A DNA stretch of 64,000 bases, taken from positions 431 to 64,430 of the forward strand of contig CAXAGT010000003.1 in the NCBI GenBank assembly GCA_963968885.1, written 5' to 3'. This DNA is from an uncultured Candidatus Poseidoniales archaeon. Lineage in GTDB: Archaea > Thermoplasmatota > Poseidoniia > Poseidoniales > Poseidoniaceae. The notes under the pieces were generated by a model that saw only the letters and a list, made by a program, of their open reading frames with translations, made no database searches and had not been told where the DNA came from. A program made the translations under genes and the position numbers. Below, piece by piece: positions 6,348-26,633 of this stretch. Positions within the stretch are counted from its first letter, which is position 1; every line of letters starts with the position of its first letter.

Positions 6348-6543
6348 TTGGTTCCATTTTGGAAACTAGTTCCACCGTTTCTAGGTTGAAACGACTCGTG
6401 AATTTAGTGACTCTAAAATCAGAGAATTATTGATAATTCGTTAGTGTCTTATGAACTTCACATACAACGATTTTATCCCTGCTAAACGCGTTTCTTAAGA
6501 ACCCCTCGCTGGTGGCTCAAGTTAAGCAGACCGAGGTTTTACC

Positions 6544-8751
6544 ATGGGCAGAAAAGAAGACAATATCAAGAAAGCAAGAGAAGTAATGCACGTCCTTCCA
6601 CAAATCAGGAACTTGTGTATCGCAGCTCACATCGACCACGGAAAGACAACACTATCAGACAACCTAATCGCAGGTGCTGGAATGATGTCCAGCGATCTTG
6701 CTGGTGCAGCACGTGTTTTGGACTTCGATGAACAAGAGTCAGCAAGAGGAATTACAATTAACGCAGCTTCTGCTTCGATGGTTCACCAACACGAAGAAAC
6801 AGATTATTTGATCAACCTGATCGATACTCCAGGTCACGTCGACTTTGGCGGTGACGTAACTCGTGCAATGAGAGCAGTTGACGGTTGTTTCATCCTTGCT
6901 TGTGCTGTTGAGGGTCCGATGCCTCAAACTGAGACTGTAGTTAGGCAAGCTCTGAAAGAGAAAGTAAAGCCTGTACTATTCATCAACAAAGTTGACAGAT
7001 TAATCAACGAGTTACAAGTAACTCCTGAGGATATGATGGAGAGATTCAAGGGAACAATTCAAAAGGTCAACAAACTAATCAGGCAATTCGCTCCTGAGCA
7101 ATACAAAAAAGAATGGCAAGTTGATGTTGGAAGCGGTACTGTAGCATTCGGTTCAGCATACCACAACTGGGGAATCACTGTTCCATACATGGCAAAGTCC
7201 GGAATTTCCTTCAAGCAGATTTTCGAATACTGTAACAACGAAGACCAAAAAACTCTAGCAGAAAAAGCTCCAGTCCATGAAGTACTTCTGGACATGGCTG
7301 TTACTAAACTACCAAGTCCAATCCAAGCTCAAGAATACAGAATTCCTAACATTTGGACTGGTGACCTAGAAAGTGTAACTGGACAAGCCATGCTAAAGTG
7401 CGACCCTGAGGGAGAATTAGCTATGATGATTACAAAGATTTGGATGGATCCTCACGCAGGAGAAGTTGCAGTAGGTAGACTATATTCAGGTGCAATCAAT
7501 CAAGGCGAAAGCGTCTACGCAATCGGTGCTGCAAAGCCAGAACGTGTTCAACAAGTTTCAATGATGGTCGGTCCAGACAGAATCACAGTACCTACAGTCG
7601 TTGCAGGTAACATTGCGGCGATAACAGGAATTCGTTCTGCTGCTGCTGGTGTTACTTTGTCAAGAGACAAGGACTTCACACCATTCGAAGCAATTAGGCA
7701 CTACTCTGACCCTGTTGTTACAGTTGCAGTCGAGCCTAAGAACATGAAAGACCTTCCTAAATTCATTGATGCTTTGAGATCATTAGCAAAGGCTGATGCA
7801 TCTCTACAAGTTACCACAAATCAAGAAACTGGTGAGGCTCTTCTAGCAGGAATGGGAGAATTGCACCTTGAGATTACTGTTTTCAGAATTGAAGAAGAAC
7901 AAAATATCCAAGTTAAGGTTTCTCCACCTATTGTCGTTTACAGAGAATCTATTGAAGGTAATAACCACGGTAGACCATTTGAAGGTAAATCGCCAAACAG
8001 ACACAACAGATTTTACATAGAAGTCGAACCACTAAGCCCAGAAGTTCTAAAGGGACTAAGAGAAGGTGTTTTCGGTGATGGTCCGGTTAGAGCAAAGGAA
8101 ACCAAAGAGATCGGTGACAGATTCGGAGAATACGGAATGGACAGAGACATGATGAGAAAAATCTATGCTATCAACGGTACCAATGTTCTAGTAAACGATA
8201 CCAAGGGTATCCAAGCACTTCACGAGACTCGTGAATTGATTATTGAAGCATTCAACGAAGTTTGCAAGAAGGGACCAGTTGCTGATGAGCCTATGATGGG
8301 TATGTTGGTTAGACTAGTTGATGCCAAACTCCACGAAGACGCTATCCACAGAGGACCTGCACAAACAATTCCAGCTGTAAGAAACGGTTTGAAAGGAGCT
8401 ATCCTCAGAGCAAGAGCAATTCTGAAAGAGCCTATGCAAAAAGCATTCATCTCTGTTCCTAATGACTGGCTAGGTCAAGTTACAAGAGAAGTAACAAACA
8501 GAAGAGGAATCATTGAGGATATGCCTAGTGAGGGTGATGTAACAACTGTAGTAGGAATTATTCCAGTTGGTGAAACATTCGGTTTCTCTAACGACATTAG
8601 AGCAGCATCTCAAGGACGTGCAGTCTGGAACACAGAAAACATGGGCTTCGAGAATTTACCTCCTCAATTATTCGACAAGGTCGTCGGAGATATCAGGACA
8701 AGAAAGGGTCTGAAGCCAGAACCAAATCCAGAATCTTACTATTCAGAGTGA
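6544..8751 (+). CDS. fusA: translation elongation factor 2 (aEF-2)
   Basis: GTPase motifs AHIDHGKTTLSD, DTPGHVDF and NKVDR, plus the diphthamide loop HEDAIHRGPAQ. 735 aa, downstream of S12-S7. Confidence 0.97.
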   Translation: MGRKEDNIKKAREVMHVLPQIRNLCIAAHIDHGKTTLSDNLIAGAGMMSSDLAGAARVLDFDEQESARGITINAASASMVHQHEETDYLINLIDTPGHVDFGGDVTRAMRAVDGCFILACAVEGPMPQTETVVRQALKEKVKPVLFINKVDRLINELQVTPEDMMERFKGTIQKVNKLIRQFAPEQYKKEWQVDVGSGTVAFGSAYHNWGITVPYMAKSGISFKQIFEYCNNEDQKTLAEKAPVHEVLLDMAVTKLPSPIQAQEYRIPNIWTGDLESVTGQAMLKCDPEGELAMMITKIWMDPHAGEVAVGRLYSGAINQGESVYAIGAAKPERVQQVSMMVGPDRITVPTVVAGNIAAITGIRSAAAGVTLSRDKDFTPFEAIRHYSDPVVTVAVEPKNMKDLPKFIDALRSLAKADASLQVTTNQETGEALLAGMGELHLEITVFRIEEEQNIQVKVSPPIVVYRESIEGNNHGRPFEGKSPNRHNRFYIEVEPLSPEVLKGLREGVFGDGPVRAKETKEIGDRFGEYGMDRDMMRKIYAINGTNVLVNDTKGIQALHETRELIIEAFNEVCKKGPVADEPMMGMLVRLVDAKLHEDAIHRGPAQTIPAVRNGLKGAILRARAILKEPMQKAFISVPNDWLGQVTREVTNRRGIIEDMPSEGDVTTVVGIIPVGETFGFSNDIRAASQGRAVWNTENMGFENLPPQLFDKVVGDIRTRKGLKPEPNPESYYSE

Positions 8752-19753: not shown

Positions 19754-21109
19754 GTGGATAGAATGCAACCAGGAGGTCTAGGTAATACTGGAACTCATTA
19801 TTGGGATGGTTATCAATGGGTCCCAAATAACCAGCAAATAGTAAGCAATGACGGTAGATTTGTTTGGAATGGTAGCCAGTGGATACCAATTCAAAACCAA
19901 CAAATTTCTCAAGATGGAATGTGGGTATGGAATGGAATGCAATGGATTCCAAATCAGAATGTTCAGATGTATCAACAACCTCAACAACAATACTTCCAAG
20001 CTCAAACAACCTTCATACATCAACCGGTCAAAAATAGTGGGAACCTGAGTTTGGTTGTAGGAATTATTGCAGCGGTTGTTATTGTTGGCATACTTCTCAT
20101 CGCAGGAGTGTCTATTGCTATCATTAATGCCTTTGGATATTCAAACGACAAAACTCCTGAATTTGGATTTCGTCATGATGTTGATTACAGATTATATGAG
20201 GACTTAGGTTCAAACAATGGCGTATATAGCGCTGGACCAGATTACCCTGATTTTTCTTCAACAGTTGCAATTATTGGTGAGGATTCCAGCGGTGATGCAA
20301 GTTATGGTAGCGGAGTTGTGATATCTGAATATTGGGTTTTAACGGCAGCACATGTGGTCGATCAAGTCATGACAAGTAGAACTTATGTCTATGATGGTAA
20401 TGATTACGAGGATTCGGATGCAAACAGATACTCTGTATCGAAAATCTTCATGCATCCTGGCTGGGAGGTAGATTCAGATTTAATGGAAGAGGGAATGGAT
20501 ATTGCATTACTTCGCCTTGACGATCCAATAGACCAATCTGCTGTTGAGATTGGTTCATGGCATAATCAAGAATCAAATCAATTATACATTGGTTCATTGG
20601 TTTTTACTGCAGGATTTGGAGCATACGATAGGGAGTATTCAGAATGCACAGATTTCTGTTTGACAGATGGTAGCGGAGATTATTCACAAAGGCGTGCATG
20701 GGCTAATACTCTTGATAGAGAAGTCGTAGGCATAAGGTCATCTGATTCATTCCAGAATGATGATTTTTGGCTAGGTGGATTCATTTCATATGATTTTGAT
20801 AGCCCTGATGGAAAAGACAACACACTTGCCTCAGGAAATACCTCAACATTTGCTCAGGGTGATTACTCATATGTTGGAAGCGGGGATAGTTCTCCTAACG
20901 CACTTGATTTGGAGGGCACCAGCGTAAGTGGAGATTCTGGTGGTCCAACTTATGCATACCTAGATGGGGAATGGAAGGTAATTGGTTTGACTTCACATGG
21001 TAGCTTGGCAGCCAATTACGGAGATGTTGCCGTAAATACACATGTAGGTGTACATACGTCATGGATATGCTCAAAGAGTAATGATTTGCAACCAATAACC
21101 GGTTGCTGA
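19754..21109 (+). CDS. membrane-anchored trypsin-like (S1) serine protease with N-terminal W-rich repeats
   Basis: Catalytic triad contexts LTAAHV, DIALLRL and GDSGGP. One TM helix (LSLVVGIIAAVVIVGILLIAGVSIAII) lies between the repeat region and the protease domain. Confidence 0.75.
   Translation: MDRMQPGGLGNTGTHYWDGYQWVPNNQQIVSNDGRFVWNGSQWIPIQNQQISQDGMWVWNGMQWIPNQNVQMYQQPQQQYFQAQTTFIHQPVKNSGNLSLVVGIIAAVVIVGILLIAGVSIAIINAFGYSNDKTPEFGFRHDVDYRLYEDLGSNNGVYSAGPDYPDFSSTVAIIGEDSSGDASYGSGVVISEYWVLTAAHVVDQVMTSRTYVYDGNDYEDSDANRYSVSKIFMHPGWEVDSDLMEEGMDIALLRLDDPIDQSAVEIGSWHNQESNQLYIGSLVFTAGFGAYDREYSECTDFCLTDGSGDYSQRRAWANTLDREVVGIRSSDSFQNDDFWLGGFISYDFDSPDGKDNTLASGNTSTFAQGDYSYVGSGDSSPNALDLEGTSVSGDSGGPTYAYLDGEWKVIGLTSHGSLAANYGDVAVNTHVGVHTSWICSKSNDLQPITGC
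19790..19960 (+). repeat. three tandem 63-nt (21-aa) coding repeats, consensus DG..W.WNG.QWIPNQNQQ
   Basis: THYWDGYQWVPNNQQ / DGRFVWNGSQWIPIQNQQ / DGMWVWNGMQWIPNQN. The Trp positions 17, 38 and 59 are spaced exactly 21 aa apart. Confidence 0.7.
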
Positions 21110-21125
21110 ATTAATCAAATTAGTA

Positions 21126-22151
21126 TCAGCGGTTAGCTAGTGTTAGGGAAGACCACATTTCTTCAGGTACTTCCATAGCCAATCTTAGACCGCCCATTGC
21201 ACCTAACCTTACAGGGTCATCTACAACGTGAACATTGACATCGCCCATGTCAGAAAGTTTCCTTTCTATCATTGCGCCTAGACCTCTTATTCCTGATCCA
21301 CCGCCAGCTAGAACCATGTTTCTTCTGAACTCATCGTGGAATTCTGGGTTAGATTCTGCAATTAATTTCTTGACGTTTTCAACAATTGGGTCAACGATTG
21401 ACTCGCAAGCATTTTGGATACAATCTGTAATGTCTAGATTCATTGACTTACCCTCGATGGAGAAGTCCACCATAATCGGCTCTTCTGGAGCAGCAGTTGA
21501 AACAAAGGAGTATTGTTCCTTCCATCTTCTAGCCATGTCCTTTGTGATTTGAGCACCATTGTATTTCTTTTGTACTTCTTCGATAATTTTTCTGTCAACA
21601 AAGTCTCCAGCATGCCCTGTGTGCATTTGATCGCCAGGTCCTGGAATTGTTCCGTAGACACGGCAAAGGTCAGCAGTTCCTGCACCGATATCGATAACCA
21701 GTGTGTGCTCAATCATATCCAAAGCGTATGCAACAGCAAACGGCTCTGAAATAATCATTGCAGCGTTAACTGATCCAGCCGCAGCATCAAAAATCGCAGT
21801 TTTGTCGACGTGACTTGCTTCTGCAGGTGCACCGATTACGGCAACAACACGGTCATATTCCTCAGGGTCGGATAATTCGATAAGATGTGTAATGAAGTGA
21901 GCAATAAATTGCCTGTCTTCTGGGGTGTCTTTTATCACACCAAGTTCCAAAGGTCTGAACAGGTTAAGTGCCAGTCTGTTTTTTAGTGCTTCATTTCCAA
22001 ACAAAACATCTCTCTTAAGGAAGTTTCTTGCTACAGGATCTTTTGGAGTTCCTATAACAGTTAGTTCTTCTTCTTCGTGTGAATCAGAAGATACCATTAC
22101 AGATCTAAAAGTTCCAAGGTCTATTCCAATGTATAATACATCATCAGCCAT
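21126..22151 (-). CDS. actin-fold ATPase, MamK/MreB-like
   Basis: Phosphate-1 motif IGIDLGT, phosphate-2 motif VIDIGAGTADL and adenosine motif LAGGGSGIRGL. Start set at MADDVLYIGIDLGT. Confidence 0.75.
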   Translation of the reverse strand: MADDVLYIGIDLGTFRSVMVSSDSHEEEELTVIGTPKDPVARNFLKRDVLFGNEALKNRLALNLFRPLELGVIKDTPEDRQFIAHFITHLIELSDPEEYDRVVAVIGAPAEASHVDKTAIFDAAAGSVNAAMIISEPFAVAYALDMIEHTLVIDIGAGTADLCRVYGTIPGPGDQMHTGHAGDFVDRKIIEEVQKKYNGAQITKDMARRWKEQYSFVSTAAPEEPIMVDFSIEGKSMNLDITDCIQNACESIVDPIVENVKKLIAESNPEFHDEFRRNMVLAGGGSGIRGLGAMIERKLSDMGDVNVHVVDDPVRLGAMGGLRLAMEVPEEMWSSLTLANR

Positions 22152-22278
22152 TTTCTCACCAGTCCTTGCACTTTGAACTCGTTTATGAACCATTACTATC
22201 AAAACTGTTGGAAAACCAAGTGTGAAAATAAAAGTAAATCATAAATTCATGGTTTTTATGAATTCTATAGAATATTGT

Positions 22279-23292
22279 CTACAGCCAGGATTCACACGGA
22301 TGACAGTACCAAGCAGAGTACTCAGGATACAGTTCTGCTAGACCTCCACAATTAGTACACTCTTTGGTGGCATTATCTCCAAATAATTCTTGGATTATTT
22401 GTACATGGTATTCATCAGAAATTCCTAGTTGTTGTCTCATCGCCCATAGCATTTGATCTTCAGAAGGTGAAATAATTCCATCCTCTAAGACTAATGCAAC
22501 CACATTTTGATAATCCTCAATTACGCTAACATCCCTAGCATCTAAACTTATTCCGCCTTTTGTGGCTACGAAGTTTTTACCTTCTGGATCGTCAATAAAC
22601 AGAACAAGAGACTCGGGTTTTAAGCTTGAATCTCTCATTTCGAAATTCACAGTATTGCCCTCTGAATTAGCAAAGACAAATCTTGAGGCGCGGTTTATCA
22701 CATTTGCAATAGAGCGAGCCGTCATTTCAGCCTTTGGTCCTCTCTTCCAACCTGTTGGAGACATTTCATTGAAAGTATAAAATTCGGTACCCAATCCAGG
22801 ATATTCGAGCCTTATTTCTTCTCCACCATCAAAGCCATTGTCTACAATTTGTAATTGAGCAATCACGGTAGAAACAAGTTCATCATCATCGCCAAAACTG
22901 ATCATCAACGGCTTTCGCTCCTCGGTGGCTGCGTTGAAGTGACCTTGCATACCCCGCATCCATTTGTCCTCTAATCTAGTAAGAGATGCTTCTTGTTCTT
23001 CGGTAAGTTGCTTGTCGATTCCCAAGACATTTGACATACTGCCCGATTTCATTTCTTGCTTAAATTCTTCAATCAATTCAGAATCTCTGCGGTAGTTCTC
23101 AGGCTTCATTTTATTTCCGTGTCCCTCGAATTCAGGATCAGGCCATTCATGAGAGCAACTCATACACTTTAGGTAACCTTGCATAGTAGAAGGAGACTTT
23201 TCACCCCCACATCTAGGGCAATCCCCGCCTTCGTTGTAAGCCAGGTTCTCTGCAGAGTCTTTTCGTCCCTGCCTGATGTTAAACCCAGCCAT
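22279..23292 (-). CDS. hypothetical protein with N- and C-terminal zinc ribbons
   Basis: CPRC..(x17)..CMSC at the N-terminus and CTNC..(x14)..CHPC at the C-terminus. Lies directly upstream of, and co-directional with, the actin-like gene. Confidence 0.45.
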   Translation of the reverse strand: MAGFNIRQGRKDSAENLAYNEGGDCPRCGGEKSPSTMQGYLKCMSCSHEWPDPEFEGHGNKMKPENYRRDSELIEEFKQEMKSGSMSNVLGIDKQLTEEQEASLTRLEDKWMRGMQGHFNAATEERKPLMISFGDDDELVSTVIAQLQIVDNGFDGGEEIRLEYPGLGTEFYTFNEMSPTGWKRGPKAEMTARSIANVINRASRFVFANSEGNTVNFEMRDSSLKPESLVLFIDDPEGKNFVATKGGISLDARDVSVIEDYQNVVALVLEDGIISPSEDQMLWAMRQQLGISDEYHVQIIQELFGDNATKECTNCGGLAELYPEYSAWYCHPCESWL

Positions 23293-23336
23293 GCTTACCG
23301 AGGAGCGGGTATAGTCTTTGAATGATTCGGACTTAT

Positions 23337-25463: not shown

Positions 25464-26204
25464 ATGTTGCGTAAGTGTCCCGAGCACGGAGATTTTCAAG
25501 GTACTAACTGTCCAGTTTGTAATAAAGAAGGCAAATTCATCATGTCAGACAGAGAAGCAGGCTCGCTAGGTAGAATGCTTGCACTAATTCTAAGACATGC
25601 TCCTGAGAAATTTAACCTAGAGATGGACATTAACGGATGGGTTAACCTCAGGGATTTGTCTGATGCAATTGCTAATCAAAGAAGAAATTTCCACTGGTTG
25701 AGATCATGGCACTTTGAATCAATTGCAAATGCTGATGAAAAAGGTAGATATCAAATTGAGGGAGGCTCCATTAGAGCAACTTATGGACATTCTATAGAAC
25801 TAGATCTTGATTTACCAACTGATGATATTCCAGAGGTCCTATATTGGCCATGTGAAGAAGGTCAAGTTGAAACTCTATTGGAGTATGGCATAACTAAGGG
25901 AGAAAGGCAACATATTCACCTTTCTAGAACTATTCTTAACGCCCTAGAAGCAGGTCATGTAAGGATAAGTAGACCGGCAATACTTGAGGTTGATACCACT
26001 AGAGCAATCGCAGATGGTTACCAGATTTACAGAGCAGGCACAACAGTTTTCATCACTGATGAGGTTCCTCCGGAGTACCTATACAGAATCGAAGCAGATG
26101 ATCCTATCATCGAAGAGACTTTCCTAAGATGGGAAGAAGAAGAGGCTGCGCAAGCTGCTGCTGAAGAGGAAGCTGCACAGGCTGCTGCTGCTGAAGAAGA
26201 GTGA
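25464..26204 (+). CDS. kptA: RNA 2'-phosphotransferase Tpt1/KptA with N-terminal zinc ribbon and acidic repeat tail
   Basis: LALILRHAPEKFNLEMDINGWV, RATYGHSI and HIHLS fit Tpt1. CPEH..CPVC at the N-terminus. Confidence 0.8.
   Translation: MLRKCPEHGDFQGTNCPVCNKEGKFIMSDREAGSLGRMLALILRHAPEKFNLEMDINGWVNLRDLSDAIANQRRNFHWLRSWHFESIANADEKGRYQIEGGSIRATYGHSIELDLDLPTDDIPEVLYWPCEEGQVETLLEYGITKGERQHIHLSRTILNALEAGHVRISRPAILEVDTTRAIADGYQIYRAGTTVFITDEVPPEYLYRIEADDPIIEETFLRWEEEEAAQAAAEEEAAQAAAAEEE
26133..26201 (+). repeat. imperfect tandem coding repeat (EEEAAQAAA x2) at the Tpt1 C-terminus
   Basis: gaagaagaggctgcgcaagctgctgct / gaagaggaagctgcacaggctgctgct. Confidence 0.5.
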
Positions 26205-26633
26205 TTATCTCTGATGTCCGCAATTCGGACAGAAGTCCAAATCTTGTTCCAATGGGGAACCGCATTTTGAACATGATAGGGTGTTGAAACTTTCCGCATC
26301 TACAGCAGTGGCTGTGACTCTACTCATTTTCAGTGGAGCGTCCTCCCCAGTAGTCACTTCCTTGAATGGATCGATTCCCATCCTCTTTAATTGGCTATAC
26401 TTCTTCCTAAATTTTAGTAATTCATTTAGTGTAACTTCAATCTGAGTTTGCCTTTTTCTCCTATCTTCCTTATCCGGAATTTGTTCGGTCTTGATTAACT
26501 CAGCTTGTATTGCGAGTTGGAACTCTTGTAGTGTAGGTTCATCAGACATATGCGAATCCAATCCCAACTTGTTCATCAAACCTGTCATAGGAATAGACTC
26601 AATTGCGATTACTTCCTCCCCCGAGCATGGCAA
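26205..26633 (-). CDS. hypothetical protein with C-terminal zinc ribbon
   Basis: CSKC...CPNC at the C-terminus. The start is uncertain (an internal Met at 26588 is possible). Confidence 0.4.
   Translation of the reverse strand: MPCSGEEVIAIESIPMTGLMNKLGLDSHMSDEPTLQEFQLAIQAELIKTEQIPDKEDRRKRQTQIEVTLNELLKFRKKYSQLKRMGIDPFKEVTTGEDAPLKMSRVTATAVDAESFNTLSCSKCGSPLEQDLDFCPNCGHQR

Follow-up and report, generated by a model that had tools for sequence, protein, structure and literature searches.

A MamK-related actin gene and its acidic zinc-ribbon neighbour form a conserved pair in Poseidoniales (Marine Group II archaea)

The MamK branch of the actins includes some archaeal proteins (Yutin et al. 2009), MamK is the closest subfamily of the archaeal actin salactin according to the authors of the salactin study (PMC10746226), and BeeR is a MamK relative from a non-magnetotactic organism, with a function that is unknown (PMC11929497). 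A disordered N-terminal domain is regarded by the BeeR authors as a family hallmark (PMC11929497). We analysed a pair of adjacent genes within 64,000 nucleotides (nt) of contig CAXAGT010000003.1 (positions 431 to 64,430; assembly GCA_963968885.1), hereafter the window, from an uncultured archaeon of the order Poseidoniales. One gene encodes an actin homologue, which we call actin A, and the other a protein bearing zinc ribbons at both ends, the zinc-ribbon protein. The reading that we favour, with a confidence slightly above even, is that of a MamK-type filament working with a lineage-specific acidic zinc-ribbon adaptor or regulator and organising cell shape or the envelope. Poseidoniales, or Marine Group II, rank with the most abundant archaea in surface seawater; we know of no cultured member, and to our knowledge their cell biology is essentially unknown.

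The actin A gene (21126-22151, minus strand, stop codon included) encodes a MamK-related actin-fold ATPase of 341 amino acids (aa), and the zinc-ribbon protein gene (22279-23292, minus strand) an acidic protein of 337 aa with an isoelectric point (pI) of 4.56. Both open reading frames (ORFs) are real genes, since each has many homologues, thousands for the actin and about 300 for the zinc-ribbon protein. The named homologues of both belong to Candidatus Poseidoniales, Poseidoniaceae and Thalassarchaeaceae, that is, to Marine Group II archaea, so that an earlier note on this DNA, made from its letters, was right to speak of planktonic archaea. The same note had placed the zinc-ribbon gene directly upstream of the actin gene on the same strand, which stands, and had given 342 aa for the ATPase and 76 nt for the gap, both of which need correction. 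The longest actin ORF (358 aa) begins at a TTG at 22202, the point to which the 76 nt were measured; the ATG at 22151 is the start kept across relatives, in 96 of 97 distinct orthologous upstream sequences, and gives 341 aa and a spacer of 127 nt. Across 120 loci this spacer ranges from 54 to 160 nt, with a median of 115.

That the two genes belong together was the central idea of the earlier note, and both synteny across genomes and co-occurrence are in keeping with it. Actin A lies directly downstream of the zinc-ribbon gene, on the same strand, in 123 of 126 zinc-ribbon loci, and the other three reach the contig end within 4-216 nt. In a set of 121 genomes from the order, presence of one gene goes with presence of the other, and the few mismatches trace to a locus that is cut or unassembled. 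The pair is present in all sampled genomes of the window's family, of a second family and of six genera of a third, and it is absent from the genera with genomes of 1.2-1.6 Mb (small-genome Thalassarchaeaceae). Five of the genomes lacking the actin have kept the flanking genes, and in these a thiolase-like gene abuts the gene of a 213-aa membrane protein exactly where the pair would sit; two further actin-less genera have lost the 213-aa protein as well. It is because of this strict adjacency, the identical presence and absence, and the clean two-gene gap in the genomes lacking the pair that we propose a filament with its adaptor. The 213-aa protein, itself a zinc-ribbon protein encoded convergently, was considered as a third component and rejected, being present in 105 of the 121 genomes, actin-less genera included, and often elsewhere in the genome.

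The MamK model of NCBIfam (NF040964) matches actin A over model positions 1-330 of 335 with 361.8 bits (E 3e-108), below its cut-off of 400. The other NCBIfam models score 212.3 (BeeR), 67 (salactin), 29.6 (EutJ), 27 (HscA), 18.5 (DnaK) and 15.8 bits (ParM), the cut-offs being 530 for BeeR, 400 for the salactin equivalog, 182 for EutJ, 648 for DnaK and 417 for ParM. The best relatives in the PDB are three MamK entries (5ljw, 5jyg and 5ljv; E about 1e-73, the best 8e-74), followed by BeeR (9e-42) and MreB (about 1e-14), with BLAST identities of 38% to MamK, 30% to BeeR and 28% to MreB. In a maximum-likelihood tree (LG+C20; 74 rows, of which 73 form the ingroup and MreB the distant outgroup; support given as ultrafast bootstrap/Shimodaira-Hasegawa-like approximate likelihood ratio test, SH-aLRT), the window's protein falls inside a Poseidoniales clade, A (100/100), which is sister to another clade of the same order, B (100/100), the two together having 100/98. 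As sister to A+B (99/95), the tree places long bacterial proteins with a C-terminal MamK-like domain, 43-48% identical. Canonical MamK forms a clade of its own (97/99), the smallest clade holding both MamK and actin A is the whole 73-row ingroup, and BeeR is a separate clade with 100% SH-aLRT in quick trees. The judgement of the earlier note that the ATPase resembles MamK more than MreB therefore holds at the level of the superfamily, by profile, PDB search and tree, and goes too far at the level of the family, as the protein lies outside the canonical MamK clade and below the family cut-off. Judged from its sequence, actin A is a new Poseidoniales clade in the MamK/BeeR radiation and not a magnetosome MamK.

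Public records name the protein otherwise, as "rod shape-determining protein MreB", and it does pass the broad Pfam MreB_Mbl model (96 bits, cut-off 27). It might accordingly be an MreB-type shape determinant guiding envelope synthesis, which we consider very improbable. The more specific MreB models (equivalog and subfamily) stay far below their thresholds (TIGR00904, 85.9 bits against 365.75; NF010539, 95.8 against 293), the MamK score is fourfold higher, and actin A is far from MreB in the tree. There are no mreC-, mreD- or rodA-like genes nearby, and the N-terminal amphipathic helix is absent, the protein starting MADDVLYIG with its first strand beginning six residues in. Scarcely credible, too, is an actin-fold ATPase that does not polymerise, like Hsp70 or EutJ, a grouping against which the earlier note had weighed its idea. 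What speaks for it are the weak and partial matches to EutJ, HscA and DnaK listed above, which are fragmentary and far below the cut-offs; Pfam HSP70 also stays under its cut-off (18.2 bits against 20.6), and MamK and BeeR, which form filaments, are matched over the full length. Actin A does not group with Hsp70 or EutJ, and the genome encodes a separate 627-aa ORF of Hsp70 size.

The family to which actin A belongs is small, as only 147 clusters at E <1e-30 came out of an exhaustive search, with HMMER, of 1.84 billion representative proteins. MamK-like genes occur in some large-genome Thermoplasmatota (379-436 bits), and none in Marine Group III; in other Thermoplasmatota with genomes of 2.8-5.5 Mb, the MamK-family genes reach 398-436 bits, four of them (424-436) passing the NCBIfam cut-off. 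One of these genes (locus L153) adjoins cheD- and cheC-like genes, so named from ORF translations alone. A phage origin was considered, and GenBank phages gave no match to the query; two IMG/VR contigs classed as viral (50 and 114 kb) encode MamK-like genes 40-42% identical to actin A.

The ATPase motifs of actin A are intact. In the phosphate-1 motif DLGT (residues 11-14; 22110-22121, minus strand), D11, G13 and T14 are invariant in the actin alignment, as are D154, G156, A157, G158 and T159 of the phosphate-2 motif DIGAGT (residues 154-159; 21675-21692, minus strand). Glu136, in an SEPF motif (codon 21744-21746, minus strand) and at least 90% conserved, aligns without gaps in the HMMER alignment with E143 of MamK, which we take to be the catalytic residue of that protein, and D154 aligns with MamK D161; the residues matching both are thus retained, by alignment. 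In the adenosine-binding motif GGGS (residues 283-286; 21294-21305, minus strand), G283 is invariant, and G284 and S286 are at least 90% conserved. Every motif that the earlier note had quoted is found (VIDIGAGTADL, PGPGDQ, KEQYSFV, LAGGGSGIRGL and LRLAMEVPEEMW), and the aligned MamK counterparts of these stretches read TVPGPEDQ, KEQFSFV, FAGGGSRIRGL and LRLAEELPPQYW. Identity of actin A across Poseidoniales is 73-92%. With a Kimura distance of 0.275, against 0.58-0.93 for the others, it is the slowest of six neighbouring genes, which fits a protein with many polymer contacts. In one single-contig genome (G003; locus L051, 6891-7457 and about 6435-6998), actin A is split by a 1-nt frameshift in the region of the phosphate-2 motif (codon ~153), reflecting either a sequencing error or a recent pseudogene.

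The zinc-ribbon protein was described in the earlier note as a 337-aa neighbour with a Cys4 ribbon at both ends and a helical segment near the C-terminus, and this description is accurate. The N-terminal ribbon (C25, C28, C43 and C46; 23155-23220, minus strand) and the C-terminal ribbon (C312, C315, C330 and C333; 22282-22368, minus strand) each have the CxxC...CxxC pattern, and all eight cysteines are invariant in 16 orthologues. Equally invariant are the motifs NxFDGGEE, EYPGxGTEF, GWxxG and DDPG of an alpha/beta core domain (residues 136-256; 22525-22887, minus strand) and DGIIxPSED in a helical, weakly TerB-like module (DGIISPSEDQ...LGIS; residues 257-308; 22369-22524, minus strand), for which two helices are predicted (276-289 and 293-307). 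The AlphaFold2 model is confident over the C-terminal two-thirds (core 143-250, helices 258-307 and ribbon 309-337, the last with a predicted local distance difference test, pLDDT, of ~90) and reasonably so for the N-terminal ribbon (pLDDT ~83); modelled alone, the core reaches a pLDDT of 89.8 and a predicted template-modelling (TM) score, pTM, of 0.84. Residues 71-135 (22888-23082, minus strand) stand out, having a pLDDT of 36-55 together with a mean column identity of 0.72 and 14 invariant residues, which is the conservation level of the folded domains. Segments that fold on a partner typically show such a combination, and this stretch is therefore our candidate fold-on-binding region.

No Pfam or NCBIfam family matches the zinc-ribbon protein above cut-off. 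The N-terminal ribbon has a weak Zn_ribbon_IS1595 match in 14 of the 16 orthologues (best E 9.4e-7), and PF05099 TerB matches 9 of 16 (best E 6.6e-5), at model positions 82-111 of 118 only and with 12.5 bits in the window's protein against a gathering cut-off of 24.4. The TerB-like module recurs in many other Thermoplasmatota proteins. One of them is a 142-aa protein (contig C1:972-1400 of the same genome) carrying the module of zinc-ribbon residues 255-305, with archaellin genes ~6 kb off (C1:7443-8715); in many genomes, equivalent ORFs of 145-170 aa are found equally far from the archaellin genes. A gelsolin- or ADF-like core was considered and found unsupported, since the matches from Foldseek were marginal and the 50 listed included no gelsolin. 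All domains of the zinc-ribbon protein are acidic (pI 4.05-5.19). When 251 Thermoplasmatota genomes were searched with its profile, the full-length protein turned up in Poseidoniales only, and each named one of the ~300 homologues is labelled Marine Group II/Poseidoniales or a broader archaeal taxon. Three of 80 genome-derived loci lie in metagenome-assembled genomes labelled as bacterial (Salipiger bermudensis, Rhodobiaceae and Verrucomicrobiales); they carry typical Poseidoniales versions (~65-68% identity), and the contigs are most likely binning errors.

Each gene has a conserved promoter-like box of its own. Upstream of the actin ATG, by 31-38 nt, is the TATA-like box TTCATAAA (22182-22189, minus strand); of 120 intergenic spacers, 105 contain TTCATAA, at a constant distance of 38-40 nt from the ATG, and the position reads TTGATATACCG or TATATATACGG in the other two families. 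The conserved form of the actin box, placed roughly at -40 to -30, is TTCATAAAGTG or TTGATATACCG. The zinc-ribbon gene is preceded, 20-30 nt before its ATG, by TTCAAAGACTA (23312-23322, minus strand), a degenerate copy of the box TTCATAGAAAG that forms the consensus of 94 distinct upstream sequences at -30 to -20. By standard archaeal promoter geometry, this placement suggests a leaderless or near-leaderless transcript.

The spacer also holds a perfect 10-bp palindrome, TTCTATAGAA (22263-22272, strandless), 7 nt after the stop codon of the zinc-ribbon gene. TCTATAG is found in 97 of the 120 spacers, mostly 7 nt past the stop, and is not seen in the displayed spacers of the other two families. 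The window has two copies of TTCTATAGAA (22263-22272 and 25790-25799) against 0.11 expected from shuffles, and the genome 13; its sequence is similar to both TATA-like boxes, TTCATAGAAAG of the zinc-ribbon gene and TTCATAAAGTG of the actin gene. One might see in this palindrome a DNA site of a chromosomal segregation system like ParMRC or AlfAB, in which DNA would be bound by the zinc-ribbon protein as adaptor and pushed or pulled by the filament. An actin gene beside a small adaptor gene recalls parMR and alfAB, zinc ribbons can bind nucleic acid, and salactin of H. salinarum is reportedly linked to chromosome partitioning under low phosphate. We nevertheless find this improbable, given the ParM score of 15.8 bits against a cut-off of 417, the sighting of the palindrome only in spacers of the window's own family, its 13 copies scattered over the genome, and the acidity of the zinc-ribbon protein in every domain; no iterated centromere-like repeats were found around the two genes, and the pair is dispensable in whole genera. 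As whole genera do without both actin A and the paralogue described below, an essential role such as chromosome segregation would be less likely than one in shape, size or surface.

The mechanism that we propose for the pair would run as follows. Actin A would be a filament-forming homologue of the MamK/BeeR superfamily that binds and hydrolyses ATP and assembles into filaments. The zinc-ribbon protein would most likely be a dedicated adaptor or regulator of the filament, acting in the manner of MamJ on MamK or arcadin-2 on crenactin, though related to neither. It would interact physically with actin A, docking on the filament probably through residues 71-135, and its folded core, TerB-like helices and both zinc ribbons would serve to bundle filaments or to tether a further component.

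Several observations weigh against this reading. The whole neighbourhood (IDI-GGPP synthase, IPK, KptA and CoaBC) is syntenic across the order, so that adjacency alone is weak evidence for a functional pair. The co-loss of the two genes may be a single evolutionary event, and an apparent separate loss within one genus (g18; genomes G029 and G119) had to be withdrawn as an assembly gap, because the two assemblies are without the essential neighbour CoaBC as well. The evolutionary rates of actin A and the zinc-ribbon protein show unremarkable residual covariation (r = 0.30, rank 6 of 15 gene pairs). As each gene has its own conserved TATA-like box, the two form at most a putative operon. The MamK-like actins of other Thermoplasmatota have no zinc-ribbon neighbour at the examined loci. 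The core domain gave only marginal and uninformative fold matches (TM 0.50-0.55, E >=2e-3), the best being phage tail-sheath and nozzle insertion domains and a flagellin outer domain. Finally, we infer polymerisation of actin A from its family membership.

Many of these points would also be expected if the two genes were neighbours and nothing more, actin A forming a filament, the zinc-ribbon protein serving an unrelated process and the gene order being frozen. The separate promoter-like boxes, the equal synteny of the surrounding housekeeping genes, the ordinary rate covariation and a possible single deletion all suit this explanation, as does the recurrence of the TerB-like module in many unrelated proteins and in the 142-aa one encoded near the archaellum genes. 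It accounts poorly for the same presence and absence of both genes across 121 genomes, for the disappearance of exactly two genes while both flanks remain, and for the restriction of the full-length zinc-ribbon protein to the order that has actin A; by contrast, the 213-aa zinc-ribbon membrane protein persists in actin-less genera. We therefore regard mere neighbourhood as unlikely, though well worth keeping in mind, and retain the filament with its adaptor as the preferred reading.

A second actin, the paralogue B (clade B of the tree), is encoded elsewhere in the same genome, outside the window. It has 337 aa, is 49% identical to actin A and unlinked to it. Within a stretch of contig C23 (C23:3451-9008), it is flanked by genes for a 1034-aa S8 subtilase, with repeats of the Ca-binding type and a C-terminal membrane anchor, and for a 435-aa coiled-coil protein, and the order subtilase (800-1400 aa), actin B, coiled-coil protein (385-445 aa) is kept in 15-16 of 16 Poseidoniales genomes. 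Actin B is absent from the same genomes as actin A. Together, A and B may form an actin cytoskeleton that shapes the cell or the envelope in larger-genome Poseidoniales, and that the streamlined Thalassarchaeaceae genera would have discarded. One might extend this to a hitherto undescribed two-filament cytoskeleton, made of MamK-related sister paralogues that each have partners of their own, new in the lineage (the zinc-ribbon adaptor for A; the membrane-anchored S8 protease and the coiled-coil protein for B), which would organise the shape or the protein-degrading surface of the larger-genome, particle-associated forms and would have been lost as a set in the small-genome Thalassarchaeaceae; this we put forward as a tentative possibility. 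A link to motility was rejected, as archaellin (PF01917) does not track the actins: three genera (g10, g11 and g19) have actins without archaellin, and two (g17 and g22) archaellin without actins.

The neighbours of the pair in the window are CoaBC, a trypsin-like protease, thiolase/DUF35, KptA, IPK and IDI-GGPP synthase. The trypsin-like membrane protease (19754-21109, plus strand) is convergent to the actin gene, has no counterpart there in 16 other Poseidoniales loci, and looks like a lineage-specific insertion between the genes of actin A and the 213-aa membrane protein. Between the IPK and KptA genes lies one (26205-26633, minus strand) for a 142-aa protein with a zinc ribbon at its C-terminus; it is kept in place in 14 of 16 genomes, actin-less ones included.

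Two very strongly conserved actin paralogues, which databases wrongly call "MreB", offer a handle on cell organisation in Marine Group II, and no culture of the organism is needed to express and study their genes. They support the view of the MamK lineage as a broad bacterial and archaeal filament family, in which magnetosome positioning is one use. The Poseidoniales genera with and without the genes provide a natural comparison for filaments and differences in shape. Should binding be confirmed, the zinc-ribbon protein would add a new type to the partners that bind actins. Full-text searches of the literature returned no paper on the gene pair, on the zinc-ribbon protein or on MamK-like actins of Marine Group II.

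Among the described systems, MamK (PDB 5JYG, 5LJV and 5LJW; NF040964) is the closest. Actin A resembles it in its full-length actin fold, in its 38% identity and in having it as the best profile and PDB match, and the two have in common the nucleotide-binding motifs and the PGPxDQ, KEQxSFV and C-terminal LRLAxxxPxxxW stretches. It differs in its score (362 bits against the cut-off of 400), its separate and well-supported clade and its archaeal host; its neighbours are isoprenoid and CoA genes and not mam genes, no genome-wide mam search having been made, and its candidate partner is unrelated to MamJ, LimJ or McaA/B. On score, clade and genomic context, actin A is thus outside the curated MamK family, while its predicted catalytic features are those of MamK.

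BeeR, the three-stranded tubular actin of Verrucomicrobiota (PDB 8R2N; NF053558), belongs to the same MamK-related radiation, and actin A differs from it in being 30% identical, in scoring 212 bits against 530, in lacking the disordered N-terminal domain and in forming a separate clade. Salactin of Halobacterium (PF25229; NF053533) is likewise an archaeal actin with MamK as its closest subfamily; actin A scores 58-67 bits with its models and is without the long charged N-terminal tail. The bacterial proteins of the sister clade of A+B (520-1230 aa) are unlike actin A in that their filament domain is fused, by a long disordered linker, to an N-terminal coiled-coil region; one of them is labelled candidate division KSB1 (MBN1348044.1). 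The idea that the Poseidoniales partner proteins are relatives of these N-terminal extensions was rejected, as no homology was detected between the extensions and either the zinc-ribbon protein or the coiled-coil neighbour of actin B.

As a gene pair, the locus is comparable to MamK-MamJ, crenactin-arcadin-2 and ParM-ParR, in each of which an actin gene adjoins a small lineage-specific gene. MamJ is an acidic protein, as is the zinc-ribbon protein. Unlike the partners in those pairs, with an interaction that is here a proposal, the zinc-ribbon protein has no sequence or fold relation to MamJ, arcadin-2 or ParR.

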